A DNA stretch of 64,000 bases. It comes from a virus. Taxonomy: Duplodnaviria; Heunggongvirae; Uroviricota; Caudoviricetes. The DNA lies in the IMG/VR virus record IMGVR_UViG_3300038435_000048, positions 12,277-76,276 of that record; one strand, written 5' to 3'. The notes beneath the pieces were generated by a model that saw only the letters and a list, made by a program, of their open reading frames with translations, had not been told where the DNA came from and did not search any database. A program made the position numbers and the translations under genes. The first letter of the stretch is position 1. Each line of letters starts with the position of its first letter. Of the stretch, positions 4,699 through 31,794 are shown piece by piece.

Positions 4699-4885
4699 TA
4701 GAAGATTTGCTTACGTGAAACGTTCAAGTAAGTATGAGAAGATTGACTTCTCGCAGATTGCAGTCAACGAATCCTTCATTCTCTGTGAGCCGGATGGCAC
4801 TCCTGTTGGGCATTATGTTGCGGCATCATGGCCATACGAGCAGCGTGGCATTGAGACTATTCAGGTTGTGGAGTGTAAGAAATGA
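4685..4885 (+). CDS. hypothetical protein
   Basis: ORF with ATGATG start overlapping the upstream stop. Confidence 0.35.
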   Translation: MMESDRRFAYVKRSSKYEKIDFSQIAVNESFILCEPDGTPVGHYVAASWPYEQRGIETIQVVECKK

Positions 4886-5988
4886 ATCAGATGTACTATG
4901 AGCCTCAGATGAAATCGATCTCGGAGCGTGTGAATCGCAAGCCGCGATTGGTGCAGTGCATTCAGATGTTGAATGAAGAATACTTTGCCCCCCTGGTTCT
5001 TAGTTCGATCTATGATCAGGTAGATCGTATCATTGTTATCGAAGGGGCGGTCGCGAACAATCCACGTTCAACTCCAGATGGACATTCTATTGACAAGACA
5101 CGCGAAGTGCTGGCGGATTTCAAGGCCAATCACGATCCCAAGAAGAAGGTTGTTGTAATTTCAATCAACAAACACTGGAAGAACTTGGAAGAGATGAAGC
5201 AGACATTCCTGGACATGTCTATTCCAGGCGATTGGATGCTCATTAACGACGCGGATGAATTTTATCGTCCACAGGATATAGTCCGTCTTCGTCAGGCTAT
5301 TGAACTGAATCCTCATGCCTGCGAATTTGTGCCGAACTTCTTACACTTCTATGGCGACTACTTGCACGTTGCCAAACCTGGGCCGGAATGGCAGCCACAA
5401 CACCAACGTATTTTCAAGTACGTTCGTGGCATGAAGTACAACAGTCACCCGGTTGTTACTGACCCTGTGGGGCATTGCACCTACTTCTCGCCACACTATC
5501 AGCATCGTAGGGTCATGCTGAATGACTTCTTTATCTTCCACTATGGCTATGCTCGTGGTAATATGGACGAGATTATGAAGGCCAAGCAGGAATACTACGA
5601 GAAGGAACTCGCGGCACACGGTGCCGCTAATAAGAAGTTTGACCAAAAGGTCAAGGATTGGTTTGCTGATACGGAACCTGTGCTGGAATTTGATGGTCAG
5701 CATCCGGCCGTACTTCAAAACATAACGGCTGCCTTGCCGCCTCATGGTAAGGTTATTGGTAATTGGCGTGACGATCCTTTTTACGCCAAGGTACTTGCTG
5801 GCGAAGAGTATGGTAATATTTGGCTGTGTATGACTCGTCAGTCTCAGCCACATATGAATCATTACCACAATGGTATGACTCTGGATATTCCTATCGCCAT
5901 GTTAGCCGTTCAAGATTCAATGAGGCAACAACAAAGTGCTGGACTGACTGGTCTTGGTGAATCCTGGGCTCATGTTGGCTCTTGCTGA
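4882..5988 (+). CDS. putative GT-A fold glycosyltransferase (DxD motif)
   Basis: IVIEGAVANNP ... WMLINDADEFY DxD-like motif; ATGA coupling. Confidence 0.5.
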   Translation: MNQMYYEPQMKSISERVNRKPRLVQCIQMLNEEYFAPLVLSSIYDQVDRIIVIEGAVANNPRSTPDGHSIDKTREVLADFKANHDPKKKVVVISINKHWKNLEEMKQTFLDMSIPGDWMLINDADEFYRPQDIVRLRQAIELNPHACEFVPNFLHFYGDYLHVAKPGPEWQPQHQRIFKYVRGMKYNSHPVVTDPVGHCTYFSPHYQHRRVMLNDFFIFHYGYARGNMDEIMKAKQEYYEKELAAHGAANKKFDQKVKDWFADTEPVLEFDGQHPAVLQNITAALPPHGKVIGNWRDDPFYAKVLAGEEYGNIWLCMTRQSQPHMNHYHNGMTLDIPIAMLAVQDSMRQQQSAGLTGLGESWAHVGSC

Positions 5989-10804: not shown

Positions 10805-11262
10805 AGATTATCGCACTGTTTATTTTGTCTTTGTTTGCCGCTCCTCAGAGTAGCAATCCATATTGTGGAACTAGTCCTGACGACTTCTATCCTATCCCTC
10901 AACCTAACTGCCCTAGCACAAGCACGATCGATATCAATTGTGCGGCGGCATGTGCTGATCTGTGGCAGACGGAAATGATGTTGGCATATGATGCGGCGTG
11001 TGCGTCATACGCCGCCGCAGAGGCGGAATGGAATTCTTGGGAAGCTGCCATTCAAGCTGGATATGAAGCCTGTATGGCTGTAGCACAAACGCCTCAAGAT
11101 GGTGTCAATTGTTATAGAACGATGCTACAACAACAAGACGCTAATCAAGATCTATTCGATTTGCGAAAGGGGTATATCGAAGAGGATTTGGCTGATGATG
11201 TGCAGGACGCTATGGACTCGTACAACGACTGTACTGACGACTGCTGCATCAATGGACACTGA
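10801..11262 (+). CDS. secreted Cys-rich acidic protein (signal peptide)
   Basis: N-terminal MKIIALFILSLFAAPQS signal-like segment and many Cys. Confidence 0.45.
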   Translation: MKIIALFILSLFAAPQSSNPYCGTSPDDFYPIPQPNCPSTSTIDINCAAACADLWQTEMMLAYDAACASYAAAEAEWNSWEAAIQAGYEACMAVAQTPQDGVNCYRTMLQQQDANQDLFDLRKGYIEEDLADDVQDAMDSYNDCTDDCCINGH

Positions 11263-11560
11263 TGTTTTAGCTGGCTATGGACAGGACGCTGTGACTAAAG
11301 AGCAGCGTCCGGTCATTGCAGGCGAACACATTTTTAAGTTGATCGATTCTAAAGGTATGCCATTAGATCTCGTTCAAGAGCTACTACAAGAACACAAGCT
11401 GGCCTTTGATGTATATGGTTTTATCAAGGCGGCACGTAAAAGCAAAAACTATTCACGAGAGCGACTGATCAATCTATTGATCCCGATAGACAATAAGATG
11501 TCAGATCAACATCAAGCACTGACACGATTTTGCATAGACAAGGTATACAATGATTCGTAA
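11252..11560 (+). CDS. hypothetical protein
   Basis: Internal Met start (MDTDVLAGYG) immediately after the upstream stop. Confidence 0.35.
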   Translation: MDTDVLAGYGQDAVTKEQRPVIAGEHIFKLIDSKGMPLDLVQELLQEHKLAFDVYGFIKAARKSKNYSRERLINLLIPIDNKMSDQHQALTRFCIDKVYNDS

Positions 11561-12611
11561 GGGTTATTCATTTGACGACGTTCTGCTCGTCCCACGTTAC
11601 AACGACATACCATCGCGTCGTGACGTAGATACCTCCATGAAGTTTGGCGGACTCAATCTAAGAGTGCCTGTGCTCTCGTCAAACATGGACACGATCACTG
11701 GTCTCCAAATGGCAGGCAAGATGTGCTACTTGGGTGGACTGGGGGTACTGCATAGATTCTGTACCATTGACGAGAACGTTCAAATCTTCCGCCAGCTTGG
11801 TACGGGCAACGGTGGCGGAGCGGCTGTCAATTCACTTGGCGTCAATGAAGAGTTCACACGCTTTGAAGCCCTGTATGATGCTGGTGCTCGTTACTTCTGT
11901 GTAGACGTAGCTCATGGTCACACAAAAGCCATTGGCAAGTTCATCAAGTCACTCAAGCGGATCCACAATGATATCTTCGTGATTGGTGGCAATGTTGCGA
12001 CACACGCTGGGGCTGATTATCTTGCGTCGTGCGGAGCGGATGCTATCAAGGTGGGTATTGGACCAGGATCAGTTTGCACGACGCGAATCAAGACTGGTTG
12101 TGGCGTACCGCAGTTGACAGCGATCATGGACTGTGCCAAGGTTGATCGCCTCATCATTGCCGATGGCGGTATTCGTACTCCAGGTGATGCGGTCAAGGCA
12201 TTGGCCGCTGGTGCCCATGTCGTTATGCTTGGTGGCATGCTCGCTGGAACGGACGAGACCCCTGGCAAGATAATCGAACGTTCGTACACAACTGGACCAG
12301 CGGACGGTACACTTGTGCTAATTCAAGAAGTACATCGTTTCAAGACGTTCCGTGGCATGGCCTCTAAGGAAGCTCAAGAAGACTTCATGGGAGCCATGGC
12401 AGATTGGAAGGCAGCCGAAGGCGTACAGATTGAAGTCAAGTGCCGTGGACCTGTAGCCAATGTGATCAACGATCTCGTTGGCGGTATTCGTTCTGGCATG
12501 ACGTACTGTGGAGCAAAGGACATCGCGGCGTTGCAACGCAATGCCGAGTTCATTGAAGTTACACCTAATGGTGTAAAGGAAAACTCACCCCATGGAGAAG
12601 GAAGACTATGA
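11550..12611 (+). CDS. IMPDH/GMP reductase family protein (GMP-reductase-like; ~350 aa with no CBS insert)
   Basis: [29 protein letters not shown] catalytic Cys loop and [10 protein letters not shown]. Length fits GuaC rather than IMPDH. Confidence 0.7.
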
Positions 12612-12973: not shown

Positions 12974-13566
12974 TGCAAAACTATCGAGTGACTTTTGGCG
13001 GCGAGCAGATCGACTATCACAGCAACTTTGCTGCGTGTCGTGGCTATTGGCCGATCATCAAAGCTGTTCTTGACATTCTACGTACACACGGCATTGAAGA
13101 GGCGTGGTGGTTTTTCGAGCCATACGTAGAGATCACATGGCTCTGCGATGACAAAGAACGTGCTGAGAAGGCGATGGTAGCTGTATCTGGATTGCTTGAA
13201 AGCGAGCAATACAAGTATCAGAAGTTCACGCCGGACGATGGTATCTTCGGCGACTGGCATGGCCTCACTCCAGAGGAGCGTGAATTCGGTGCAAAGCGTT
13301 ACGCAGCCCTTGCCAAGACCTCGACGCACTACTATGAGAACCTTGGGATCATTGAAGGTGGCATGGGCGTCGAGAAGCACTTTGCGAGGGCAACGCACGT
13401 TCTAGCCAATCAGCTAGGCTTGAACTACGAAGCCGAAGGCATCGCACTCCTAAAGCGTGGCTTCTTGTGCATCCTGTTCTATCACCTTGGCCACCAGAAG
13501 GCCGTGGACACATACGAGAAGCTGTTCAAGGAAAAGTACCTGGGCCGCGATGAAGATCTTAGTTAG
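12973..13566 (+). CDS. hypothetical protein (197 aa)
   Basis: Coupled to the 12608 ORF; no clear motif. Confidence 0.45.
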   Translation: MQNYRVTFGGEQIDYHSNFAACRGYWPIIKAVLDILRTHGIEEAWWFFEPYVEITWLCDDKERAEKAMVAVSGLLESEQYKYQKFTPDDGIFGDWHGLTPEEREFGAKRYAALAKTSTHYYENLGIIEGGMGVEKHFARATHVLANQLGLNYEAEGIALLKRGFLCILFYHLGHQKAVDTYEKLFKEKYLGRDEDLS

Positions 13567-14401
13567 TTACCGTGGCATTCCACAGTCGCCCGGCTGGGCG
13601 ACCGGCGATTGCGTCGTGCGTGCGTTTCGAGAACTCGGGCACGACGTGACTCCGTACGGCAACTACTATCAAACACCAAAACGTTTGGAAGATCGTAGCG
13701 TGCTGGCAGAAGATTGGGATCTATTTCTTTTTATGGAATGCGGAGACGGCGATCCAGTCTATACTGAGCTAGCTAATCTACGATCCCGCAAGCGAGCAAG
13801 CTGGTTCTTTGACGCCGCCCTGTATCCTCAGAACTGGCTGGCCATCCTTCGCCTGTTTGAGTTTGATGTCAACTTCATGGCCAACAGCGTCATGCTGTAC
13901 GACAACCTCAACACGGTGTATCTGCCGTATGCCGCAGATCCATTGCATGTACGTCCAGCCGACCACAACAAGTATAGGGCCTTTGGCTTTGTCGGCTCCG
14001 ATAGACCCGATCGTCAAGCACTAGCGGCTCGACTGTCGTTCGCCAATGTAGAGCTAAAGAGCGGCATTTTTCGCGAGGAGTTCATCAGCTATCTCGCCGG
14101 TTCGCGTTACACCATCAACGACATCGCGGGCGGTGGTGCCGGTCTAATCCCCATGAGACCTTTTGAAGCTCTTGCTGCTGGATCATGTCTCATTACCCCC
14201 AAAGACGATGGAGTCAAGTCGCTTGGATTACCGTGTATTGAGTATGGCTCGCAGGACGAGCTAGTCTCTATTTGTCGTCATTTATACGACGACAACATTC
14301 TTCCAGATAGTGCTGGACAAGACGCAGTTTTGCGTGATCATATGTATAGGCACCGTTGTGCTACCATTCTAGAAAAGCTGTTTCCACATGAAAGAGTCTG
14401 A
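13550..14401 (+). CDS. CgeB-like glycosyltransferase (Glyco_trans_1_2-like)
   Basis: MKILVSYRG start; FVGSDRPDRQALAARLS...YTIND resembles the CgeB/YkvP family. Confidence 0.55.
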   Translation: MKILVSYRGIPQSPGWATGDCVVRAFRELGHDVTPYGNYYQTPKRLEDRSVLAEDWDLFLFMECGDGDPVYTELANLRSRKRASWFFDAALYPQNWLAILRLFEFDVNFMANSVMLYDNLNTVYLPYAADPLHVRPADHNKYRAFGFVGSDRPDRQALAARLSFANVELKSGIFREEFISYLAGSRYTINDIAGGGAGLIPMRPFEALAAGSCLITPKDDGVKSLGLPCIEYGSQDELVSICRHLYDDNILPDSAGQDAVLRDHMYRHRCATILEKLFPHERV

Positions 14402-15062
14402 TTCGGTCAGTGTTTTGATCTGCTGTCACAGCGTCGATCACGAGCATGATGTGCTCCTGCAAGAAGCTCTTGAGTCTTTGACTCGACAGACGTATCCGAA
14501 CTTTGAGACTGTTCTAGTTCTTGACCAATGCCACGAAGGCACGAAATGGACAGCAGAGCCGTACAAGGACATCTTGAATCTCAAAATTCACGAACGTCCA
14601 CACAAGCAGGGCTTGGCAATGGCCAAGAACTTTGGACTAGCTCACTGCTCTGGCGATTGGATCGCCTATCTTGACGCCGACGATCAGTGGATGGACTGCA
14701 AGCTTGAATGGCAACGCAACTTTCTACTAGAGAATCCAGGTGTGGATTTCTGCTTTACGGAAGCATGGGACAGAACTGGGGGCGTGCTATTGCCTAACTG
14801 TTTCAAGGTTGGTCAATATGAAACGCACGCCCAGATTGCAGCGGCTATTGGACGCGAGAATGTAGTGTGTCACGGCTCAGCGTTGATCAGGAAGCTCGCA
14901 ATCAATTCGCTAGGTGGCTACCGCACTGATCGTTCGCTCCTGGGTCGAGAAGACTGGGATCTTTGGAAGCGTGCCATTGAAGGTGGCTTCACCTTCCATA
15001 AGATTCGTGAACGTCTTTACATTTACTCGATGGGGACAAGCGTAACACGCGGCGAAGTATGA
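14388..15062 (+). CDS. glycosyltransferase family 2
   Basis: VSVLICCHSVDHEHDVLLQEALESLTRQTYPNFETVLVLDQ and DWIAYLDADDQW. Confidence 0.7.
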   Translation: MKESDSVSVLICCHSVDHEHDVLLQEALESLTRQTYPNFETVLVLDQCHEGTKWTAEPYKDILNLKIHERPHKQGLAMAKNFGLAHCSGDWIAYLDADDQWMDCKLEWQRNFLLENPGVDFCFTEAWDRTGGVLLPNCFKVGQYETHAQIAAAIGRENVVCHGSALIRKLAINSLGGYRTDRSLLGREDWDLWKRAIEGGFTFHKIRERLYIYSMGTSVTRGEV

Positions 15063-16060
15063 AGGTTCTGTACGTAGGCTTGAAGTTCAATTATGGGAAG
15101 CGTGAAGAGGGCTTCTCATATGAACACATGAATATCGAAGCCGGTATTCGTGACTGCATGAAGCGTGGCACGTTGCAGGCTGATTTTTATTGGCCAGACA
15201 TGCCTGATCGTTGCGAGATCAATGGCGAAGAGAGCGTGCTACATCCCAACGATAAGTTGGGCCTACTCAACAATCACATTGATGCCGTATTCCATGTTGC
15301 ATTCAACGAGTCGTTGGATCTACCAGAAGACGTTGCCAAGCTTGCGATCAAGCGAGACATTCCGGTCATTCAATGGGACTGCGACTCTAGCTGGCGATTC
15401 AAGAATTGGGTCTTCCCTCGCAGAGATCGTGTCACGCATTTTGTGACAACTCACTCGGCAACCATTCCAGAGTATCAACGGAATGGCATGAAAGTGATCA
15501 AGTCGCAGTGGGCTGGTTCTCCCGCCTATAAGGCGTACGAAGCTTTGTACGAGTACGATACCACGTTCGTTGGACAGAAGCATGGTCAGATGCCGAATGG
15601 CAAGTTCCTTCGCAGCGAGATCGTGGACGCGATGATGGCTGCGGGCATCAAGCTTGATCTGTTTGGCAACTACTGGGACGGCTATGCTAATTGGCACGGC
15701 TATCGTCAGAACTTCGAAGACATTATTCGTGTATTCAATTGCTCGCGTGTCAATCTGAACCTTTCGAATCCATGGCACCATGGCACAATGCCTCAGATCA
15801 AGGGCAGACACTTCGAGATCCCTCAGTGCGGCGGCTTTCAGATCAGCACGCCAGCCGACGATCTTGAAACGTATTTCGTGCCCGGCAAAGAGATCGTCAT
15901 TGTCAACAGCGTTCAAGACTTGATCGAAAAGACCAAGTATTATTTGGAGCACGCCGACGAGCGTGAGGCTATTGCTAACGCTGGACACGAACGCATGTTG
16001 GCGGAGCACCAGTGGCATCACCGTTTTCAGCACATCTTCCAGGAAGTGGGCCTGCTATGA
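15059..16060 (+). CDS. CgeB-like glycosyltransferase (DUF3880 + Glyco_trans_1_2)
   Basis: TTFVGQKHGQMPNGKFLRSEIVDAMMAAGIKLDLFG...HFEIPQCGGFQIS...EHADEREAIANAGHERMLAEH matches the CgeB family. Confidence 0.65.
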   Translation: MKVLYVGLKFNYGKREEGFSYEHMNIEAGIRDCMKRGTLQADFYWPDMPDRCEINGEESVLHPNDKLGLLNNHIDAVFHVAFNESLDLPEDVAKLAIKRDIPVIQWDCDSSWRFKNWVFPRRDRVTHFVTTHSATIPEYQRNGMKVIKSQWAGSPAYKAYEALYEYDTTFVGQKHGQMPNGKFLRSEIVDAMMAAGIKLDLFGNYWDGYANWHGYRQNFEDIIRVFNCSRVNLNLSNPWHHGTMPQIKGRHFEIPQCGGFQISTPADDLETYFVPGKEIVIVNSVQDLIEKTKYYLEHADEREAIANAGHERMLAEHQWHHRFQHIFQEVGLL

Positions 16061-16593
16061 TCAAGTTGAATCTGGCGTCCCACGGTGACAACCTTGAGGG
16101 CTTCATCAACGTAGACTTTGATCATCCGTCTGCCGACCTCAAGGCTGACGTATCGGCATTGCCATTTCAAGATGATTCCGTCGATGTCATTCTGGCGTTT
16201 CACATCCTCGAACACTTTCGTGCGGGCGAATACGAACCACACCTATCCAATCCGCTCAATCCAAAAACTGCTATGGCGGCACTTGGCGAATGGCGACGCA
16301 TCCTGCGTCCGGGCGGCAAGCTAGAGATCAAGGTGCCAGACTTTGAGAAGATCGTTTGGCTCTACTACCACTTTCCTCAGTGGGCAAGAGCAGAATCCTC
16401 GGTCAATACTCCCTTCGCCAGCTATTCGGACTGGGTTGTTTCCAATGGGCAGCATCAATGCCTATTCGATAAGAAGACCATGCACAGACTCTTGACGCTC
16501 TGTGGCTTCACCAACATCACCTTCTTGGATGGCCCGCCGGTCGCCGTCGTTGACAGAGCCAATTTGGAAATGTACGTTGTGTGCTCAAAATGA
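16057..16593 (+). CDS. class I SAM-dependent methyltransferase
   Basis: FINVDFDHPSADLKADVSALPFQDDSVDVILAFHILEHF ... LRPGGKLEI (Methyltransf_11-like). Confidence 0.65.
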   Translation: MIKLNLASHGDNLEGFINVDFDHPSADLKADVSALPFQDDSVDVILAFHILEHFRAGEYEPHLSNPLNPKTAMAALGEWRRILRPGGKLEIKVPDFEKIVWLYYHFPQWARAESSVNTPFASYSDWVVSNGQHQCLFDKKTMHRLLTLCGFTNITFLDGPPVAVVDRANLEMYVVCSK

Positions 16594-17225
16594 ACTACGC
16601 TACACGCAAAGACAATCACGACTTCTTTACGCCAGACCATGTGGCGTCCTTTCTCCGTAATCACAATACGGGTACGAACAATCACGGTCGTCATCGCCTA
16701 GCCTCTCTTTTGTTCGAGCACGTCAAGCCCACCGTTCTTGACGTAGCCTGCGGCACATGTGTCAACTGGGAAGTATTCAAGGGGCGTGGTCTAGATTGTC
16801 AGTACACCGGAGTGGATCGCACCAAGAAGATGTTGTCTCACGCCAAGGCTTTGTACGGCGACGAGATCAAGCTCGAAGAAGGATACATCCAATCTCTTCC
16901 ATTTCAAGACGCCTCATTTGATGTTGTGATTGCACGTCACATCCTTGAGCATTTAGGGGAAGGGTATGAAGCGGCGATCAAAGAAGTCTATCGTGTAGCC
17001 TCGAAGGAAGCGATCATCGTACTCTTTGTTGATCTTGCTGATATGCCGCATGACGTGATCAAAGAGTCTGAGCCTGACGAGAACGGCTGCACCTACTTTT
17101 GGAACACATACGCTCACGATAAATTCATGGCCTTCCTCGGCACATTAGGTTGTCGCGTGAGCGTAGAATACGTTCAAACCCCAGGTGCGGCTGCGGCGGA
17201 CACCATCATCAGGCTGATCAAATGA
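16590..17225 (+). CDS. class I SAM-dependent methyltransferase
   Basis: VLDVACGTCVNW motif I; SLPFQDASFDVVIARHILEHL. Confidence 0.75.
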   Translation: MNYATRKDNHDFFTPDHVASFLRNHNTGTNNHGRHRLASLLFEHVKPTVLDVACGTCVNWEVFKGRGLDCQYTGVDRTKKMLSHAKALYGDEIKLEEGYIQSLPFQDASFDVVIARHILEHLGEGYEAAIKEVYRVASKEAIIVLFVDLADMPHDVIKESEPDENGCTYFWNTYAHDKFMAFLGTLGCRVSVEYVQTPGAAAADTIIRLIK

Positions 17226-18067
17226 TTGACGTGACGTACGGTGTACTCAACTACAACCCCGACAACAACGAGGTTGCTACCGCTGCGTACATTGCGGCAG
17301 TTGAATCACTTGCTACCAATCGTAGCAAGAATCTGACGAGCGAAGTGTATTTGTTCGATCAGGCTAGTCAGCCCGATCTCACGGGGTCTTTGGCTCGTAA
17401 ACATGGCTTCAATGCCGTCACGTTGCAAAGCAATGTGGGTATTAGTCGTGGTATCAACCTGCTCGCCAATATGGCTCGCGGGCAATACGTGTCTCTCGTG
17501 ACCTCTGATGTGACGTTCACGCCTGGGCTGGACGACACGTTGATTGCCGCATTGCGTGCTGACCCCAAGATCTATCAGATCTGTCCTGTGTCTGACAACT
17601 CATCGCTCGATCACCAGCGTGCTCCATGTGCTCGTGAAGACGGCATCTTGTTGCAGAACCTAGTGCAAGAGTTGACGATTCAATTCTGGCCTCGCACCGT
17701 TTTCGAGAAGATCGGCTACTTCGACGAACGCTGGAAGGCGTGCTACGAGAACATGGACTTCGCCCTCAGGGCGTTCCTTGAGGGTGGCTCTGTCGTGATT
17801 CACCAGGGTGCCTTTTGCCATCACGAACACAATGGCACTACCAAGAGCGGTGCAATTCACAAGGCGTATGATGGCTATCTACCTATGCCGAATGGGTTGA
17901 CGCACGATTTATTGATGCCGATGTGGCGTGCCAAGTGGCCTAACCTCGAAAGGTACATGAACCACTATGAGACGTTTACTAAGGACATGGATCCGCTCCG
18001 GGCGGCGATGTTTCATGCGTACAGCAAGAACGTGTATCTACCGTATGTACAAGAGGTCGCTTACTAG
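17222..18067 (+). CDS. putative glycosyltransferase family 2-like
   Basis: YGVLNYNPDNNE start, typical of GT2; ATGA-coupled. Confidence 0.5.
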   Translation: MIDVTYGVLNYNPDNNEVATAAYIAAVESLATNRSKNLTSEVYLFDQASQPDLTGSLARKHGFNAVTLQSNVGISRGINLLANMARGQYVSLVTSDVTFTPGLDDTLIAALRADPKIYQICPVSDNSSLDHQRAPCAREDGILLQNLVQELTIQFWPRTVFEKIGYFDERWKACYENMDFALRAFLEGGSVVIHQGAFCHHEHNGTTKSGAIHKAYDGYLPMPNGLTHDLLMPMWRAKWPNLERYMNHYETFTKDMDPLRAAMFHAYSKNVYLPYVQEVAY

Positions 18068-18068
18068 C

Positions 18069-18656
18069 ATGAAGCGTTACGACATCATTCGCCACCTGAT
18101 CGAGCAACGTGGCTACAAGTCCTATCTGGAGATCGGCGTACTTGGAAACGAGACGTACAATAGTCTGCCGACGTTGGACGTGAAACACAGCGTAGATCCT
18201 AACGGACAGGCCGTGTTCAACGTCACGTCAGATGAGTTTTTTGAGCGTCACTGCAATCAGAGTTACGACATAATCTTCATTGACGGTCTGCACCTTGCGG
18301 AACAAGTTCAAAGAGATATCGAAAACTCATTGACACACCTAAACGATGGTGGTATAATAGTGGTGCATGACTGCTTGCCTTCGGCAGAGTACGAGCAGTT
18401 GAGAGAAGGGGTTAGCGGCAAACCATGGACTGGGGACGTGTGGAAGGCATTCGCGGCCTTGCGAGCCGATCGTCGTGACCTGATCATGCGTGTCGTGGAT
18501 ACAGACTATGGATGCGGACTCATTGAGCGTGGCGTTGATCCCTGCGTGCTTGTTGAGCTTCGTCCAATTGACGGCTACACCTGGGACTTCTTTTGTAAGC
18601 ATCGTAACAAGATCATGGGTGTAATCACCGTGGAGCAGTTCATTGGATGTGCATAA
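18069..18656 (+). CDS. class I SAM-dependent methyltransferase (CmcI/Methyltransf_24-like)
   Basis: SYLEIGVLGNETY ... YDIIFIDGLHLAEQVQRDIE ... GGIIVVHDC. Confidence 0.6.
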   Translation: MKRYDIIRHLIEQRGYKSYLEIGVLGNETYNSLPTLDVKHSVDPNGQAVFNVTSDEFFERHCNQSYDIIFIDGLHLAEQVQRDIENSLTHLNDGGIIVVHDCLPSAEYEQLREGVSGKPWTGDVWKAFAALRADRRDLIMRVVDTDYGCGLIERGVDPCVLVELRPIDGYTWDFFCKHRNKIMGVITVEQFIGCA

Positions 18657-19170
18657 TCGTGACTGGGTTGTAGCCCGTAACAATCTCTTGCAGGGTAAGC
18701 TGCTTGAGATTGGCAGCTTTGTTGTGCCGGGACAAGAGCATATCGCACTTCGTCCAGCGGTTGAGAAGTTCGTCGATAGCTATCTTGGCATCGATATGCG
18801 TGCAGGACCGGGCGTTGATCTCGTCACAAGCGAAGACAACGCCTTTCCTTTTGAACCGAACACGTTTGACGTGGTTGTGTCGCTCGATACCCTAGAGCAT
18901 GTTCGCAACCCCTGGACGTTCATTGAGAATGCTGCGAGAGTTTTGAAGCCCGGTGGCCACTTCTTTTTGGCTACCGTGTTTTCATTTCCGATTCATGGTT
19001 ACCCAGACGACTACTGGCGTTTCACTCCGAACTGCTTGAAGATGCTCATCGAGACCTACGGTCTCGAAGTCGCAGGAGATTTGACGCCATCCCAGTGTTG
19101 CACAACCAATCCTGCTCATCACTTAGCGAACCCCACAATCGTTCGCTTGATTGCGAGAAAGCCACTATGA
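18643..19170 (+). CDS. class I SAM-dependent methyltransferase
   Basis: LLEIGSFVVPG ... FDVVVSLDTLEHVRNPWTFIENAARVLKPGGHFF. Confidence 0.65.
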   Translation: MDVHNRDWVVARNNLLQGKLLEIGSFVVPGQEHIALRPAVEKFVDSYLGIDMRAGPGVDLVTSEDNAFPFEPNTFDVVVSLDTLEHVRNPWTFIENAARVLKPGGHFFLATVFSFPIHGYPDDYWRFTPNCLKMLIETYGLEVAGDLTPSQCCTTNPAHHLANPTIVRLIARKPL

Positions 19171-20159
19171 AGGTACTTGTAACTGGTGGCAATGGATTCG
19201 TTGGAAAGCACGTCGTTGCGGCACTGAATGCCGCAGGGCACGAAGTCGTCGCACCTACAAGCAAGGAATGGAATTGGCTTGTGTGCGGTGACATGCTTAG
19301 TGCAGATGTCCTACCGTCTGTGCTTGATACGCACATCACTCAACTGCGTAGAGGCAGATTTGATGCCGTCATTCACCTTGCTACCATCTGTGGTGGTATT
19401 GGCATCAACAAGGACAATCCAGGCAAGTTCATGTATGAGAACTTGCAGATGGGCTTGAATGTTGTCGAAGCGTGTCGCCTCGCTCACATCAAGAAGCTTG
19501 TAAACCTCAGCACTGTTTGCTCATATCCCAAGCACACACCAGTGCCATTCAAAGAGAGCGACATCTGGAACGGCTATCCAGAAGAGACCAATGCTCCATA
19601 TGGCATCGCCAAGAAGGCGATCGTCGAACTTGGCATTGCATACGCCCGCCAGTACGGACTGAATGTCACTAACTTAGTTCCAGTGAATATGGCGGGTGAG
19701 TTCGATCACTTCGACCTTTACAGCAGTCACGTCATTCCTGCTATCATCAAGAAGTTCGAGAGTCCACTTGTGGATACCACTGGTCAGTTTGGTATCTCAC
19801 CCCATAACTACCCAAAGAAGTATGTTGAGCTATGGGGAAGCGGGCGTGCATCACGCGAGTTCTTGTATGCTGGCGACTGTGCGAAAGCTATCGTTTCAAG
19901 CCTTGATAAGAACACCGGACCAGATCCGATCAATCTAGGTACTGGCCGCGAAATCACTATTCAAGATCTAGCTACGTTGATCAAGAAGATCGGTGGCTAC
20001 GACGCCGATATCGTGTGGGTTCTCAGTAAGCCAGACGGCCAACCACGCAGAAGCCTAGACACTTCACGAGCCAAACAGGTTCTTGGTTGGGAAGCTACTA
20101 CACCCATTGAAGAGACTGTGCGTCGCACAATTGAATGGTATAGAGCGAATCATGGGTAG
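19167..20159 (+). CDS. fcl: GDP-L-fucose synthase (GDP-4-keto-6-deoxy-D-mannose 3,5-epimerase/4-reductase)
   Basis: MKVLVTGGNGFVGKHV Rossmann start and STVCSYPK, ETNAPYGIAKK, LVPVNMAGEFDHFDLYSSHVIPA, LWGSGRASREFLYAGDCA, KPDGQPRRSLD. These track E. coli Fcl motifs. Confidence 0.8.
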   Translation: MKVLVTGGNGFVGKHVVAALNAAGHEVVAPTSKEWNWLVCGDMLSADVLPSVLDTHITQLRRGRFDAVIHLATICGGIGINKDNPGKFMYENLQMGLNVVEACRLAHIKKLVNLSTVCSYPKHTPVPFKESDIWNGYPEETNAPYGIAKKAIVELGIAYARQYGLNVTNLVPVNMAGEFDHFDLYSSHVIPAIIKKFESPLVDTTGQFGISPHNYPKKYVELWGSGRASREFLYAGDCAKAIVSSLDKNTGPDPINLGTGREITIQDLATLIKKIGGYDADIVWVLSKPDGQPRRSLDTSRAKQVLGWEATTPIEETVRRTIEWYRANHG

Positions 20160-20691
20160 ACTAGCATTAGATCTAAATGGTAAACGCTTTGGCAGACTTG
20201 TCGTTAGCGATCAGGTGCGTAAGGTTGGACGTGCCGTACAACGCCTATGTCATTGTGAATGTGGTCATGAGACTTGGCAGATAGCAAATCATCTAACTTC
20301 TGGACACACCAAGAGTTGTGGGTGTTTATTGCGTGAATTCAAAAAGCTTAGTCCTGGAATGGCAGCCAGAAATGAAGTGCTAGATGACTATAGGCGTGGT
20401 GCTGCAAGTCGTGGACTTGAATGGAAACTAACAGACGACGAGTTTGACGCACTCATGTCTTCTGAATGCTTTTACTGTCACAGACAGCCAAATACCAGTC
20501 GAAAGTCAAGAAGATCTAATGGAGATTTTACCTATAATGGTATTGATAGGCTTGACAATAACAGAGGGTATAGACCGGCTAATGTTGTCGCATGTTGCAA
20601 GATCTGTAATCGAGCCAAGAGCGATATGACATATGATGAATTTACCGACTGGTTGCACGACGTGAGCGAGGCTATTCATGGAATCAAATAG
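20155..20691 (+). CDS. HNH homing endonuclease
   Basis: CxCxCG...KSCGC N-terminal module; CFYCHRQP...NGIDRLDNNRGYRPANVVACCKICNRAK HNH motif. Inserted between fcl and gmd. Confidence 0.75.
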   Translation, partial: GRLALDLNGKRFGRLVVSDQVRKVGRAVQRLCHCECGHETWQIANHLTSGHTKSCGCLLREFKKLSPGMAARNEVLDDYRRGAASRGLEWKLTDDEFDALMSSECFYCHRQPNTSRKSRRSNGDFTYNGIDRLDNNRGYRPANVVACCKICNRAKSDMTYDEFTDWLHDVSEAIHGIK

Positions 20692-21709
20692 AAAGCGTGT
20701 CGCCATGATCACTGGCGTCACTGGCCAGGACGGTTTCTATCTTGCTCACCATCTGCTGCAAGCGGGCTACTACGTTGTTGGTATTCGCCGCCGCACGTCA
20801 ATGCCCACGGATGGACGCCTCCGCACATTGCGTGGCAGCCCGAATTTCGTGTTAGTCGATGGTGACATTTCTGACCTTTCAAGCCTACAGGACATAGTGC
20901 GAAAGTTCCAACCAGATGAATTTTATCATTTGGCCGCACAAAGTCATGTCGCTATGTCCTGGAAATACCCGATCACTACTTGTGAACTGACAGGTCTTGG
21001 CGTCCTCAATTGTCTTGAAGCTATTCGTCAAGAGAAGATTGATTGTCGCTTCTACTTTGCTGGCTCAAGTGAACAGTTTGGCAACCCCATCCATAATGGC
21101 AAGGTAGCGAGCTTGAATGAAGATACGCCGATGGAGCCTGAGTCACCATATGCGGCGGCTAAGGTCTTTGGCTACAATATTTCTCAGGTGTATCGTCGTT
21201 CATTCGGCATGTACACAGCCTGTGGCATCTTGTTCAACCATGAGTCACCACTGCGAGGCGAAGAGTTCGTAACCCGCAAAATTACGAGCAACCTTGCTCG
21301 TGTCAAGTGGGGACTTCAAGAGTATGTCGAGCTTGGTAATATGGATGCTTGCCGCGACTGGGGCTTTGCTGGTGATTACGTGCGTGCGATGCACGCAATG
21401 CTACAGCTAGACGCTCCAGACGATTTCGTAATTGCAACGGGCTCTACTCATTCTGTACATGAGTTCTTTAATGCTTGTTGTAAGTGGTTTGGTCTGTCTC
21501 CTGAAAAGGTTTATCGGATCAATCCTGAATTCAAACGCCCTAAGGATGTTGAAGTATTGTTGGGCGATTCTTCCAAGGCTAGAGAGTTGTTAAACTGGTA
21601 TCCTCAGTGTGACTTCAATCAGCTAGTCGAGAAGATGTGTCGTTATGATCATCATCTTCAATCTCCCAATTCTGACTATGCCCGCAGGGCAGACGAATTC
21701 CTTTTCTAG
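20678..21709 (+). CDS. gmd: GDP-mannose 4,6-dehydratase
   Basis: MITGVTGQDGFYLAHHLLQAGYYVVGIRRRTS ... SPYAAAKVFGYNISQVYRRSFGMYTACGILFNHESPLRG. Confidence 0.85.
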   Translation: MESNRKRVAMITGVTGQDGFYLAHHLLQAGYYVVGIRRRTSMPTDGRLRTLRGSPNFVLVDGDISDLSSLQDIVRKFQPDEFYHLAAQSHVAMSWKYPITTCELTGLGVLNCLEAIRQEKIDCRFYFAGSSEQFGNPIHNGKVASLNEDTPMEPESPYAAAKVFGYNISQVYRRSFGMYTACGILFNHESPLRGEEFVTRKITSNLARVKWGLQEYVELGNMDACRDWGFAGDYVRAMHAMLQLDAPDDFVIATGSTHSVHEFFNACCKWFGLSPEKVYRINPEFKRPKDVEVLLGDSSKARELLNWYPQCDFNQLVEKMCRYDHHLQSPNSDYARRADEFLF

Positions 21710-26894: not shown

Positions 26895-28118
26895 ATGGTC
26901 CGACACGCAAATCTGTGGTTTGAATCTTGCCCAACCAAGCGTGAAATCACGTCTGGTTTGATTAAGAACGTGGATACACTTATCATCGGCGGTGGGCTCG
27001 CCGGGATAAGCCTGCTGTACTACCTCGTCCAAGGGGGTATGATTAATACCTATCTTGTGGAGGAAACATCAGTAGGATTCCATGCGTCTGGACGAGGGAT
27101 GGGACAGCTTCTATTGCGGGGCAATAAACTGTTTCATGAAATGTCAGACGGCGAAGAGTACCTTGAGTTTGTTGGTGAGAACAATAGACGCTTTTTGAAT
27201 GGTATGCGGGTTCTAACCTTTGATCACGACATGCGTGAGACTGGTGGGTTAAGGCTTGCAATCGATGATGAAGAAATGTCTAAGTTGGAGAAGGAAGCCG
27301 CCTTCATTCAGCGTGTCCGTGGCATTGACTGCCCTGTTCTTTCCAGACGCCAATTGGACCTCATGGTTCCACAGAAAAACTTCGTTGGCGGAATCTTTGT
27401 TCCTAATGAAGCCACTTACAATCCATACAAGGTAGTCAATGGACTACGCGATGCTGTTGAGAAGGGTGGTACTCGTGTATTCACAAACACACAAGTGGAA
27501 TCGGTGGTTCCAAATGACGATGGTAGTTTGACTGTTTCAATTCGACATCGCGGAACGATTCGAGCCAAGCAAGTAGTGTACTGTACTGGAGCATACACAA
27601 ATAGACTGTTGCCAGAGTTTGCAGATATCCTCGTTCCGTTTCGTGAACAGATGATAGCTACCGACTATCTTGAAAACGACATTGTACAGTCTCTACCTAC
27701 CATGAGCATTTCGTGCAACAATGGTAATGAAAGATTCCGCCAGTACAATGCACGTTTGATCATGGGAGGAATGCGTCAGGCCGTTCGCGGACAGCAAGAG
27801 GGTATCGTATACGATGGAGAGATTAGCTCTGCTGTGTATGAAAAACTTCGTCTATACGCAATCGAGTCTTTTCCAGTCTTGAAATCTGCTAAATTCAGTC
27901 ACGTTTGGTCAAGTGTTTTCTGCTCCACCCCGGACGGGAAGCCACTTGTTGGACCCGTGCCCGACAAGCCCAACCAATACATACTGACTGGATTCGGTTG
28001 CTATGATTCTAGCAACGCGATTCTAGGTAGCATGATGATTAAAGACTACATCAAGCATAAGGACTCGACTGTACCCGGTCACAAGATTTTGAATCCAGGA
28101 CGCTTCTTAAATGTTTGA
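26895..28118 (+). CDS. FAD-dependent oxidoreductase (DAO family)
   Basis: DTLIIGGGLAGISLLYYL dinucleotide-binding motif. Confidence 0.6.
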   Translation: MVRHANLWFESCPTKREITSGLIKNVDTLIIGGGLAGISLLYYLVQGGMINTYLVEETSVGFHASGRGMGQLLLRGNKLFHEMSDGEEYLEFVGENNRRFLNGMRVLTFDHDMRETGGLRLAIDDEEMSKLEKEAAFIQRVRGIDCPVLSRRQLDLMVPQKNFVGGIFVPNEATYNPYKVVNGLRDAVEKGGTRVFTNTQVESVVPNDDGSLTVSIRHRGTIRAKQVVYCTGAYTNRLLPEFADILVPFREQMIATDYLENDIVQSLPTMSISCNNGNERFRQYNARLIMGGMRQAVRGQQEGIVYDGEISSAVYEKLRLYAIESFPVLKSAKFSHVWSSVFCSTPDGKPLVGPVPDKPNQYILTGFGCYDSSNAILGSMMIKDYIKHKDSTVPGHKILNPGRFLNV

Positions 28119-30072
28119 TATCGCCGCACCGTCATTCACCTTACCTGATTCGTTCCTCACAAAATACCGTGGCAAACAACCCGAGTGGGGACCGCTTGGC
28201 TATTTCACTTACAAGCGAACATACTCGCGTGCTATTGAAGGTGAAAGCCGCTCAGAAGAGTATTGGGAAACTTGTCGGCGTGTAGTCGAAGGCACGTTCA
28301 GTATTCAGCGTAACCATTGTAAGCGTAATCACTTACCATGGGACGAACGTAAGGCTCAACGCACAGCCAAACGTATGTTTGAGCTAATGTGGGCGTTCAA
28401 ATTCCTACCGCCTGGACGTGGCTTGTGGGCTATGGGCACGAAATACGTGCAAGAGCGTGGTGGTGCCGCACTTAACAACTGTGCATTCGTTAGCACAAAA
28501 GATTTGGCTACCGATCCAGTTAAGCCGTTCCTGTTCATAATGGATATGAGTATGGTTGGCGTGGGTGTAGGCTTTGACACCATGGGTGCTGGTAAGCTTA
28601 CGATCAAAGAGATCACGGTCAATAGGGCCGAACCATTTGTCGTTCCAGATACCCGCGAAGGTTGGGTTGAAGCGTTGCGACTTCTGCTAGAAGCGTACGT
28701 CAATGGCACTCCAGGCCCATGGTATGACTTTAGTTTGGTGCGACCAGAAGGTGCTCCCATCAAAGGCTTCGGTGGTACTGCCAGCGGACCTCAGCCTCTC
28801 ATTGAGATGTTGCAGGACATTCGCGGTATCCTCGACGGCAAGGTCGGGCAAACATTATCTTCGGCCGATATTGTTGACATCGGCAATCTCATTGGTAGGT
28901 GCGTCGTCGCGGGCAACGTTCGGCGTTCAGCCGAGATTGTATTTGGCGATCCTACTGACGAGACTTTTGCTCTTTTAAAGCAGGATAAAGCCAAGCTTAC
29001 GCATCATCGCTGGGCTTCCAACAATTCCATATTTGCAACTGTAGGTATGGACTATGCATGGCATGCTCGTCAGACAGCACTCAATGGTGAGCCTGGATAT
29101 ATGTGGCTTGACAACGCCCGTGCGTATGGACGCATGAAAGACCCTGCTGATTGGGCAGACCGCGAAGCCGTTGGTGGCAATCCCTGTCTAGAGCAGACAT
29201 TGCACCAATATGAACTTTGCACGCTCGTTGAGACCTTCCCTTCGAGACATGAAAGTCTCGAAGAGTATTTCGAGACTCTCAAGATTGCGTACTTGTACGC
29301 GAAGACTGTCACGCTTATTCCTACGCACTGGGCAGAGACTAACTCTGTCATGGCTAAGAATCGTCGCATTGGTCTGAGTCAGAGCGGTATTATCAAAGCA
29401 TTCGGTCGTCACGGCAGACGCGAGATGCTGCGTTGGTGCGACAAGGGATACGAATTCATCTCTGGGCTTGACGTACAGTATTCCAATTGGCTGGGTGTGC
29501 CCAAGTCGATTAAGAAGACTTCGGTCAAGCCCAGTGGGACTATTAGCTTACTGGCCGGTGAGCCACCGGGTATTCATTACCCGCATTCGGAATACTACAT
29601 CAGGCGAATCCGTGTGGGCACGACTTCGCCTTTGGTCGAATCAGCACGCCAAGCTGGCTACAAGATTGAGCCTGCCGTTGGCCAAGAGGCTAACACGGTT
29701 TGCATCGAGTTCCCGATCAAGGAAGAATTCTTCGTACGTTCGAAGGACGACGTATCGATCTGGGAGCAGGTTGCTAATGCAGTTGCGTACCAACGTTACT
29801 GGGCTGACAATCAAGTGTCTGTTACTGTGACTTTTAAGCCAGTTGAGAAGGAAGACATTCAACACATCCTTGAGCTATACGAGGATTCATTGAAGGGTAT
29901 TTCGTTCTTGCCGATTGAGGAGCACGGTTACGTTCAGGCACCGTACGAGACGATCACCAAAGAACAGTACCTTGAAATGTCGAAAGACTTGAAGCCTATC
30001 GTTTTCGACGACGCCTCGGAGGGCGACGCGGTAGCTCCTAAGTATTGCGATTCGGACTCTTGTGAACTATGA
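28111..30072 (+). CDS. nrdJ: ribonucleotide reductase class II, monomeric adenosylcobalamin-dependent (RTPR-like)
   Basis: N-terminus FTLPDSFLTKYRGKQPEWGPLGYFTYKRTYSR, NCAF, GGNPCLEQTL catalytic Cys region, ~650 aa. Confidence 0.8.
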   Translation: MFDIAAPSFTLPDSFLTKYRGKQPEWGPLGYFTYKRTYSRAIEGESRSEEYWETCRRVVEGTFSIQRNHCKRNHLPWDERKAQRTAKRMFELMWAFKFLPPGRGLWAMGTKYVQERGGAALNNCAFVSTKDLATDPVKPFLFIMDMSMVGVGVGFDTMGAGKLTIKEITVNRAEPFVVPDTREGWVEALRLLLEAYVNGTPGPWYDFSLVRPEGAPIKGFGGTASGPQPLIEMLQDIRGILDGKVGQTLSSADIVDIGNLIGRCVVAGNVRRSAEIVFGDPTDETFALLKQDKAKLTHHRWASNNSIFATVGMDYAWHARQTALNGEPGYMWLDNARAYGRMKDPADWADREAVGGNPCLEQTLHQYELCTLVETFPSRHESLEEYFETLKIAYLYAKTVTLIPTHWAETNSVMAKNRRIGLSQSGIIKAFGRHGRREMLRWCDKGYEFISGLDVQYSNWLGVPKSIKKTSVKPSGTISLLAGEPPGIHYPHSEYYIRRIRVGTTSPLVESARQAGYKIEPAVGQEANTVCIEFPIKEEFFVRSKDDVSIWEQVANAVAYQRYWADNQVSVTVTFKPVEKEDIQHILELYEDSLKGISFLPIEEHGYVQAPYETITKEQYLEMSKDLKPIVFDDASEGDAVAPKYCDSDSCEL

Positions 30073-30608
30073 AATCTGGTGATGTTATCGGGTCTTGGAC
30101 CGTCATTGAAGACGTGTCATTCTATCAACGTAACAACAAACGCGGAATGCTATTGTGTCGATGCGTCTGTGGCGTTGAGAAGAAGGTATGGAAATCTCAC
30201 TTAGAGGCTGGTGACAGCAAGTCTTGTGGATGTAAACGTCCAGGTGGAAAATCTCACTACAAGTGGACTGGCTGTGGTGAACTAGATGGCAATCACTGGA
30301 ATCAGATTGTACGCAATGCGACCGGCAAGAAGGGTCGTGCAGCATTCGCAATGACAATCACAATTGAAGACGCTTGGAATCTTTTTCTTACTCAAGACCG
30401 CAAATGTGCCCTCACTGGATTACAAATTCAACTAGGTAATGAGCGTACAGCGTCGTTAGATCGTATTGATAGCAGCCTTGGTTATGTATACGGTAACGTA
30501 CAGTGGGTACATAAAGACATCAACAGGATGAAGAACACGTTACCGCAGGGAAAGTTCGTAGCACTTTGCCATCTTGTATCAGAAAACTCTAGACAGACGA
30601 CCACATAG
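30069..30608 (+). CDS. HNH homing endonuclease (paralog of 20155-20691)
   Basis: LCRCVCGVEKKVW...KSCGC module shared with the 20155 ORF; C-terminal DRIDSSLGYVYGNVQWVHKDINRMK HNH-like. Confidence 0.7.
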   Translation: MKSGDVIGSWTVIEDVSFYQRNNKRGMLLCRCVCGVEKKVWKSHLEAGDSKSCGCKRPGGKSHYKWTGCGELDGNHWNQIVRNATGKKGRAAFAMTITIEDAWNLFLTQDRKCALTGLQIQLGNERTASLDRIDSSLGYVYGNVQWVHKDINRMKNTLPQGKFVALCHLVSENSRQTTT

Positions 30609-30624
30609 TCGTCATCATATCAAC

Positions 30625-30915
30625 ATGAAGAACACTCAGAAGTACGTCATCATCTTCGCCAAGGACGAAAAGGGCGAAGACATACACTACCGTTTCATGC
30701 TCTCGATCGGCAAGTCGATCAAATCGGTCGAGAAGTCATTGCTCGAAGCCCTGATGGGAACTGACGGCGTGGATCGCATGGAAATCCATGGTCGCTACAC
30801 AGCCGAGGTTGTCATTGCACGCTCGTTCGACGCCGAGGAAGTGCTGGCTGAATTGAGGCCAAAACTGGATGCGGCACTGAGCGACATCGTTGTACCAAAA
30901 TTGGTCATGCCATGA
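30625..30915 (+). CDS. hypothetical protein
   Basis: ORF. Confidence 0.35.
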   Translation: MKNTQKYVIIFAKDEKGEDIHYRFMLSIGKSIKSVEKSLLEALMGTDGVDRMEIHGRYTAEVVIARSFDAEEVLAELRPKLDAALSDIVVPKLVMP

Positions 30916-31112
30916 GAATTCATACCCTCAAACACTCCCATCTTGAAACGCATGGCACGGCACCGTACTCTGGTGTTGAAGTCAGTGCTGACAAGAAGTC
31001 ATTTGGCTTGACGTTCATGATCAATGAACACAATGGCGTTTATGTTTCTGACATGACTCGCAAGCAGTTGCAAGATTTGTACGACACTATTGAGCGAATG
31101 CTGGATCGCTGA
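30912..31112 (+). CDS. hypothetical small protein
   Basis: ORF. Confidence 0.3.
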   Translation: MRIHTLKHSHLETHGTAPYSGVEVSADKKSFGLTFMINEHNGVYVSDMTRKQLQDLYDTIERMLDR

Positions 31113-31113
31113 T

Positions 31114-31794
31114 ATGGAAAAAGGCTACACCATCCCCGTCCTCGGACAGGGGTACGTTCGTTACATCGACCACCTAGGCGACGACCTTCGTATTGTCGAG
31201 ACCGCACGGATCAGCTACAAGTCGCCTAGTAAAGGCGAAGAAGCTGACAAGAAGCTCTTGATGTACCTGCACAAGAATCGGCACACGAGTCCGTTCGAGT
31301 CGTGCAACATCACGTTCAATATCAAGATGCCTATCTTCTGTATGAGACAGTTCGTGCGTCACCGTACTTTCCGTCTCAATGAATGGAGTGGACGTTACTC
31401 AGAACTAGCCGATGAGTTCTACATGCCTGATGTCTGGAGAGTTCAAGACGACAAGAACAAACAAGGCAGTCTTGAAACAGATAAAGAACAGACATGGCAT
31501 GTGATTAACACTGGCCTCGCTCAAGAGGCTTTCAAGAATTGCTACAATACCTATCAGACTCTTTTGAGTCGTGGCGTGGCAAAGGAACTGGCCCGCGTTG
31601 TGCTGCCGGTGTCAATGTTCACGGAAGTGTATGTCAATGTGGATGTGCATAATCTCATGCACTTTTTGAGGTTGAGACAGGATGCCCACGCACAAAAAGA
31701 GATGCGTGATGTCGCTGATGCGATGGCTGAGATTTTCAAGGAACTGTATCCTTGGTCTTATGAGGCATATCAAAATAGTCGTTCGGGGAATTGA
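31114..31794 (+). CDS. thyX: FAD-dependent thymidylate synthase ThyX
   Basis: ThyX motif RHRTFRLNEWSGRYS. Confidence 0.85.
   Translation: MEKGYTIPVLGQGYVRYIDHLGDDLRIVETARISYKSPSKGEEADKKLLMYLHKNRHTSPFESCNITFNIKMPIFCMRQFVRHRTFRLNEWSGRYSELADEFYMPDVWRVQDDKNKQGSLETDKEQTWHVINTGLAQEAFKNCYNTYQTLLSRGVAKELARVVLPVSMFTEVYVNVDVHNLMHFLRLRQDAHAQKEMRDVADAMAEIFKELYPWSYEAYQNSRSGN

Follow-up and report, generated by a model that had tools for sequence, protein, structure and literature searches.

A PacI-like endonuclease gene of putative homing type between the GDP-L-fucose pathway genes fcl and gmd of a Caudoviricetes phage

The 64,000 nucleotide stretch analysed here, hereafter called the window, comprises positions 12,277 to 76,276 of the IMG/VR virus record IMGVR_UViG_3300038435_000048, which is assigned to the Caudoviricetes. 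At 19167-21709 it harbours two genes of the GDP-L-fucose pathway, fcl and gmd, between which a third open reading frame (ORF) is situated whose predicted product is a nuclease related to PacI. The features of this locus are as follows:

19167-20159, + strand: fcl, 330 amino acids, stop codon TAG at 20157-20159; product a GDP-L-fucose synthase-like short-chain dehydrogenase (GDP-4-keto-6-deoxymannose 3,5-epimerase/4-reductase)
20150-20155, + strand: left copy of the repeat TCATGG, containing the start codon of the endonuclease gene
20152-20691, + strand: middle ORF (endonuclease gene), 179 amino acids, ATG at 20152-20154, stop codon TAG at 20689-20691
20152-20346, + strand: zinc-ribbon-like N-terminal module of the endonuclease, residues 1-65, with Cys33/35/37 and Cys56/58
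20380-20655, + strand: predicted PacI-type beta-beta-alpha-metal nuclease core, residues 77-168, with the zinc site Cys106/109/149/152, Asp132-Arg133, Asp135, Tyr140, Asn144, Asn153 and Lys156
20676-20681, + strand: right copy of the repeat TCATGG, containing the start codon of gmd
20678-21709, + strand: gmd, 343 amino acids

As read directly from the bases, fcl, the endonuclease ORF and gmd follow each other head to tail on the + strand, with an overlap of 8 nucleotides between fcl and the endonuclease ORF and of 14 nucleotides between the latter and gmd. This agrees with an earlier note on the window, which had described three co-oriented ORFs overlapping on both sides and whose coordinates are correct except for the start of the endonuclease gene, placed by it at 20155, one codon too far downstream of the actual ATG at 20152. 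The same note had called the pathway interrupted; a nuclease gene is indeed wedged between fcl and gmd, but neither of the two is broken and both are intact. The gmd start codon at 20678 lies inside the overlap with the endonuclease gene and is kept in the orthologous loci L016 and L021 of related genomes. In view of the family matches given below, the three-ORF arrangement is not a chance pattern of reading frames. A scan for promoters and terminators between 18.5 and 22.5 kb yielded sites no more numerous than in shuffled sequence and hence gives no evidence of a promoter belonging to the endonuclease gene itself; the three genes look like a single translationally coupled unit.

Both flanking genes can be assigned with some confidence. 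Fcl matches the Pfam family Epimerase (2.8e-50), and its best NCBIfam model is that of GDP-L-fucose synthase (GDPFucSynFcl, NF047922; 7.5e-68), the score of 229 bits being below the cut-off of 500 bits. Its nine best relatives in the PDB are all GDP-fucose synthases, headed by the Escherichia coli enzyme (1BWS, 2.6e-45), and the equivalents of Cys109, Tyr136, Lys140 and His179 of that enzyme are aligned and conserved. E. coli GMER possesses a Ser/Thr-Tyr-Lys triad as well as the epimerisation pair Cys109/His179. Gmd matches PF16363 over its full length (3.7e-105, 352 bits), finds its best PDB match in the GDP-mannose 4,6-dehydratase of Pseudomonas aeruginosa (1RPN, 1.4e-90) and carries the motifs FNHESPxRGxxFVTRK and SPYAxAK, while its TIGR01472 score of 331 bits is below the cut-off of 415 bits. 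Since both proteins stay under the strict NCBIfam equivalog cut-offs, their assignment is not of curated grade, yet it is very likely; as far as can be told from the alignments, both are full-length with intact catalytic residues. The recognition of fcl and gmd by motif in the earlier note is thus borne out by their best solved relatives, a GDP-fucose synthase and a GDP-mannose dehydratase, and by the conservation of the catalytic residues.

The protein encoded by the middle ORF has no match in Pfam or NCBIfam at E 0.01 or better. PHROG families of endonuclease VII/HNH type match it with 4e-17 to 1e-13, weak PHROG matches are to Srd and sigma-70 decoy families, and 86 database homologs were found, the best with 1.6e-97. 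Among solved structures the sole significant match of the single sequence is PacI (4.6e-5). A profile of 51 homologs likewise finds PacI in the PDB (3LDY, E 2.5e-11), positions 77-168 aligning with residues 30-128 of PacI. An AlphaFold model calculated on the homolog alignment reaches a predicted local distance difference test score (pLDDT) of 92.8 and places strands at 126-133 and 145-148 and a helix at 150-156, which corresponds to the beta-beta-alpha order. When this predicted model was compared with the PDB by Foldseek, the top match was 3ldy_A (PacI; E 1.7e-4, probability 1.00), followed by the Gme HNH nickase.

The aligned motifs read GIDRLDNNRGYRPANVVACCKICNRAKS in the window ORF and GVDRSDSFEGYSPQNARLACFICNRIKS in PacI. 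Invariant in the 51 homologs are D132, R133, Y140, N144 and N153, while 90% or more of them retain C106, C109, C149, C152 and K156. D132 and N153 align with the VDR and CNR motifs of PacI, Y140 with its GY, and the four cysteines (C106/C109/C149/C152) with its CxxC pairs. The position of the canonical catalytic His at the end of the first strand is occupied by Arg133, and the canonical HNH motif is not found. PacI, too, does without the usual catalytic His and uses a loop tyrosine instead, one Asp and one Asn holding the metal (PMC5714182, PMC4081073); the residue roles in PacI are taken from these two reviews. From the alignment we infer Y140 to be the counterpart of the catalytic tyrosine of PacI. 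Altogether, the window protein and PacI have in common a CxxC...CxxC zinc site, a G(I/V)DRxD strand, a GY loop tyrosine, an Asn at the start of strand 2, a CN(R)xK helix and the absence of the canonical catalytic His. They differ in that PacI is a homodimeric bacterial enzyme of 142 amino acids reading 8 bp, whereas the window protein, which is about 25% identical to it, has an extra N-terminal zinc-ribbon module of 65 residues, is encoded by a phage genome and shows presence and absence at one intergenic site. The designation as HNH endonuclease in the earlier note therefore needs refinement: PacI profile, AlphaFold model and Foldseek search all indicate a real His-Me ("HNH") fold of the PacI type, but the H-N-H motif proper is missing, the catalytic His being replaced by Arg. 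The product is presumably active as a nuclease. The ratio of nonsynonymous to synonymous substitution rates (dN/dS) with respect to its orthologs amounts to 0.08-0.2, which shows that the protein has been kept functional by purifying selection.

The N-terminal module is likewise well conserved, C35, C37, S55, C56 and G57 being invariant in the 51 homologs, and consists of strands 16-25, 28-35 and 40-44 in the predicted model. It is found, often in tandem, in proteins with HNH_3, HNH or AP2 domains and is probably a DNA-recognition module. Homing endonucleases are usually composed of a DNA-reading module and a nuclease module (PMC10448857). One source annotation of the gene was found, a call of 110 amino acids named 'McrA' (P0004, window 20359-20691), which is 100% identical to the ORF and covers 61% of it; its start is a Met within the conserved ORF of 179 amino acids, so that the N-terminal module, itself conserved, is left out. 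Avoidance of a short palindromic target by the carrier genome, as a PacI-like type II restriction endonuclease would entail, was looked for with TTAATTAA: 0 copies are present in the window where 0.64 would be expected, a difference that carries no information, and the specificity of the enzyme may differ.

Searching the phage collection at the nucleotide level with 17-24 kb of the window revealed no relative, and no close relative was found among deposited phage genomes. Syntenic loci were found by protein-guided scans of IMG/VR and of metagenomes, and the state of the junction between fcl and gmd was scored in about 27 non-redundant related loci:

Junction precisely empty, fcl and gmd overlapping (about 12 loci): L001, L007, L028, L029, L030, L034, L039, L040, L042, L046, L067, L038
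PacI-like gene between fcl and gmd (9 lineages): window, L016, L021, L023, L025, L026, L027, L050, L041 (partial)
HNH_3 endonuclease gene at the junction: L036 (3441-3998) and L037; 185 amino acids; PF13392, 6.9e-12
DUF7870 gene, 216 amino acids, at the junction: L002 (5352-6002), L004, L006 (5355-6014; plus a second ORF)
Small ORFs of 74 and 67 amino acids at the junction: L005, L032

The sporadic presence at one site, accompanied by empty sites, that characterises free-standing homing endonuclease genes is thus found here (9 occupied, about 12 empty). In the closest relative, L001, whose Gmd is 88% identical, the junction is precisely empty; L001 and L076 are parts of one contig of 147.9 kb which contains neither the junction endonuclease nor the paralog at 30069-30608 described below. 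On the Gmd tree carriers interleave with empty sites (window with L001, L021 with L028, L041 with L042), and the deepest branch of this tree (L027/L050) also carries the endonuclease. The HNH_3 (PF13392) endonuclease of L036 and L037 occupies the same site in the same orientation and is similar in size to the window gene. Unlike the window protein it has a canonical His-containing motif, and a tblastn comparison (E 1e-6) detected no similarity between the two. In L038, where the junction between fcl and gmd is empty, an intact PacI-like gene (1021-1566, 54% identical) lies on the upstream side of fcl, between that gene and one of 272 amino acids.

Both the alternative site in L038 and the site between fcl and gmd lie just upstream of a 5' end coding for a Rossmann motif. 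The N-terminus of the DUF7870 gene, VFLDVGCNTGQS, resembles a methyltransferase motif, and a further ORF found at the junction is putatively methyltransferase-like. Homologs of the endonuclease in cultured phages occur in unrelated contexts, one from an Acinetobacter phage being situated in the tail-fibre region. In Lactococcus phage PhiM1127 (Skunavirus; L103 771-2780) the homolog is flanked by one ORF annotated 'cytosine MTase' and another annotated 'DNA methylase', which looks as if a methylase gene had been split by the endonuclease gene.

Compared with L001 and L007, the insert in the window comprises 526 bp with the 6-nucleotide direct repeat TCATGG on both sides. Deletion of these 526 bp in silico leads to an fcl end (...ANHGIK followed by the stop codon) which overlaps the gmd start as in the empty locus L007. 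ATGGGTAGA, overlapping the fcl stop codon, forms the start of the PacI-like gene as well as of the DUF7870 gene, because the same bases encode the end and the stop of fcl; different cassettes therefore have an identical left boundary. In the empty-site locus L039 (about 1800-1840) gmd starts with ATGGATAGACGA (MDRR...), which resembles the first codons of the endonuclease gene, ATGGGTAGAC, fused to the Arg-Thr-Ala start of the carriers. A deletion of the endonuclease gene could have left this gmd start as its footprint. At one of the first gmd codons most empty loci have Lys and most occupied loci Arg. We rejected this difference as a signature of target-site immunity and do not use it as evidence, since the Lys codon of the empty site overlaps the fcl stop codon and is constrained otherwise.

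A second gene of this kind is present elsewhere in the window:

30069-30608, + strand: divergent PacI-like endonuclease gene, 179 amino acids, between the class II ribonucleotide reductase gene (28111-30072) and an ORF at 30574-30915

Its product aligns with the junction endonuclease over the full length (26% identity, E 2e-8) and matches the same PHROG families, so that the comparison proposed in the earlier note identifies the genes at 20152-20691 and 30069-30608 as true paralogs. The elements D-R-x-D, GY, N and N are retained in it, the CxxC...CxxC pairs are missing. A homolog of this gene is absent in 8 of 8 syntenic IMG/VR relatives, in which the reductase gene is directly followed by the homolog of 30574-30915. 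Phage homing endonucleases are classically found next to reductase genes (PMC10448857). In several of the distant phage contigs L094-L102 the reductase match spans only residues ~7-370 or restarts about 1 kb later, which suggests that the reductase gene of these contigs contains inteins or introns or has genes inserted into it.

On this basis we consider it rather probable that the 179-amino-acid ORF represents a PacI-class gene of the free-standing homing endonuclease type which has settled between two intact pathway genes. Mobility is favoured by the many precise empty sites, the second nuclease family at the same site and the paralog private to this genome. The homing-endonuclease-type insertion put forward in the earlier note, which had proposed a comparison with relatives lacking the gene, accordingly gains support from the nuclease fold, from this paralog and from the roughly 12 non-redundant loci, L001 among them, in which fcl and gmd directly overlap. 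We infer homing itself, and with it the target site, from the pattern of occupied and empty junctions. Upon co-infection with a relative whose junction is empty, the enzyme would cut near that junction, and repair from the endonuclease-carrying genome would copy the gene into the cut one. The endonuclease would be translated within the operon via the overlapping stop and start codons; its N-terminal zinc-ribbon module would read the DNA sequence and its C-terminal PacI-type module would cut, an Asp and an Asn holding the metal ion and the loop residue Tyr140 taking the role of the usual catalytic His, which is Arg133 here. Meanwhile, Fcl and Gmd would still convert host GDP-mannose to GDP-L-fucose for the neighbouring glycosyltransferases.

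Several observations weigh against this reading. Between the window and L016/L021 the synonymous divergence (pS) of the endonuclease gene is ~0.65, compared with 0.59-0.76 for the flanking gmd, and the endonuclease tree broadly follows the Gmd tree. Since synonymous divergence equals that of the flanks and the trees agree, the residence of the gene dates back to the divergence of these genomes, which makes it an old occupant of the site. Neither the synonymous divergence nor the comparison of both trees gives any sign of recent horizontal movement, and sliding-window identity along Fcl and Gmd reveals no clear co-conversion tract, only the last ~20 Fcl residues being closer among carriers. The TCATGG repeat was rejected as a general target-site duplication: it is real, but confined to the clade of the window, and is weak evidence of insertion. 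Finally, the endonuclease lacks the canonical catalytic His, and the junction also accepts genes which do not encode nucleases, namely the DUF7870 gene and the small ORFs. Because of these occupants, ordinary modular recombination can alter the content of the junction, which, to judge from the loci compared, is a general exchange hot spot.

The main alternative, possible though doubtful, is a resident and perhaps domesticated nuclease which entered long ago, was inherited vertically, confers a benefit, e.g. by cutting host or competitor phage DNA, was lost several times and no longer homes. Synonymous divergence equal to the flanks, a dN/dS of 0.08-0.2, the rough congruence of the endonuclease and Gmd trees and the presence of the gene in the deepest branch (L027/L050) would all be expected in that case. 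Many independent and precise losses would be needed, however, each of them restoring the overlap of fcl and gmd. Moreover, an unrelated endonuclease family resides at the same junction, a copy is found at a neighbouring junction in L038, and of 9 related genomes this one alone has the paralog; such patterns typify mobile endonuclease genes. We regard it as improbable that the junction is simply a hot spot of recombination, exchanging cassettes at conserved gene boundaries, and the endonuclease gene one interchangeable piece of passive cargo without any role in its own spread. The DUF7870 genes, the further putatively methyltransferase-like ORF and the small ORFs at the same junction agree with such a scenario, as does the common left boundary ATGGGTAGA. 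So does the mosaicism of the neighbouring genes (mosaic region 16581-19170): the methyltransferase gene at 18643-19170 is 95% identical to L023 and 47% to L001, while the preceding methyltransferase gene at 17967-18656 is 94% identical to L001. As these two genes match different relatives, a recombination breakpoint must be located within about 1 kb of the endonuclease gene. Yet nucleases make up two of the occupant types, both belonging to families known as homing endonucleases, and the PacI-like family has been inserted beside a ribonucleotide reductase gene, a location typical of such enzymes (PMC10448857).

The replacement of the canonical catalytic His by Arg133 might also be taken to mean that an inactive nuclease fold now serves the glycan operon as a DNA-binding regulator; some His-less groups of His-Me finger proteins are inactive (PMC5714182), and weak PHROG matches to the Srd and sigma-70 decoy families were obtained. 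PacI, however, is active as a restriction enzyme with the very same D-R...GY...N...N arrangement, and many relatives have the same operon without the endonuclease gene. Given that every residue used by PacI is invariant in the 51 homologs, we deem such a regulator very improbable.

The Mob family of T4-like phages is one of the closest known systems besides PacI. Its members (e.g. MobE between nrdA and nrdB) are likewise encoded by small co-oriented nuclease genes between conserved genes, are sporadic among relatives, include a copy beside a ribonucleotide reductase gene and combine a nuclease with a DNA-binding module (PMC2790892, PMC2988022). Mob proteins differ in carrying an HNH_3-type domain with a catalytic His, whereas the window protein is predicted to be of the PacI type. 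As a tentative extension which we hold to be unlikely at present, PacI-type, tyrosine-dependent His-Me nucleases could constitute a family of free-standing homing endonucleases of phages, and the breaks made by them and by HNH_3 enzymes could drive the exchange of cassettes between fcl and gmd. If this were true, endonuclease activity would diversify the set of glycan-modifying genes of the phage. To our knowledge, homing has not been demonstrated for any PacI-type (tyrosine-for-histidine) nuclease. For viral members of the PacI type the one published suggestion found is that they are possibly restriction enzymes (PMC5714182).

Phages commonly carry free-standing homing endonuclease genes, so that the finding as such is unsurprising and its value is practical. 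With its occupied and precisely empty sites the locus forms a natural series from which the target can be guessed. It exposes an annotation gap, the gene having no Pfam or NCBIfam match and a shortened call in the source, and it presents one sugar-operon junction visited by two unrelated nuclease families as well as by other genes, in keeping with the idea that boundaries of genetic exchange are marked by nuclease genes (PMC10448857).

Upstream, fcl and gmd are preceded by further genes of glycan synthesis:

13457-19170, + strand: four glycosyltransferase and five methyltransferase genes (Pfam Glyco_trans_1_2, Glycos_transf_2, Methyltransf_11/23/24)
Starts at 1339, 3144, 6326, 7768, 8862, 13457, 14388, 15059 and 17222, + strand: the nine glycosyltransferase ORFs above the Pfam cut-off
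4882-5988, + strand: weak glycosyltransferase match

Five of the nine glycosyltransferase matches above the cut-off, together with the weak one, are thus found between 1.3 and 10 kb. Fcl and Gmd close a block of glycosyltransferase and methyltransferase genes, and the supply of GDP-fucose to the glycosyltransferases, as suggested in the earlier note, is reasonable; the transferases encoded at 13457-19170 are its likely users. The whole glycan block (1339-21709, + strand), which with its five methyltransferase genes ends in fcl and gmd, is very large for a phage. It also contains a gene of the IMP dehydrogenase / GMP reductase family (11550-12611, + strand; 5.4e-97), which could serve the guanine nucleotide supply for GDP-sugar synthesis. 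This gene is preceded by an ORF of 153 amino acids (11099-11560, + strand) with a weak match to a segment of alanyl-tRNA synthetase.

Virus-encoded Gmd and Fcl/GMER are likewise found in cyanophages; the Gmd of Synechococcus phages is about 45% identical to that of the window, and in one of these phages gmd adjoins a GDP-L-fucose synthase gene. The chlorella virus PBCV-1 also encodes the GDP-fucose pathway genes (Gmd, Fcl/GMER). Compared with these viral pairs, that of the window is distinguished by ending a block of ~20 kb rich in glycosyltransferase and methyltransferase genes and by being split by an endonuclease gene.

Fcl contains two hypervariable segments (alignment columns 41-80 and 201-240) which are 15-50% identical among close relatives, the rest of the protein being 80-98% identical; one of them is a length-variable insertion after an FES/FEN motif. 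The possibility that the window Fcl is a foreign allele was rejected, Fcl being uniformly more variable across the clade, with 66-83% identity for all pairs. Other auxiliary genes of the window comprise a thyX gene (31090-31794, + strand) and a gene for a nucleotidyltransferase of the poly(A) polymerase / CCA-adding type with an HD domain (53963-55213, - strand). An FAD oxidoreductase gene of the DAO family (26895-28118, + strand) lies beside the ribonucleotide reductase gene in the relatives, too.

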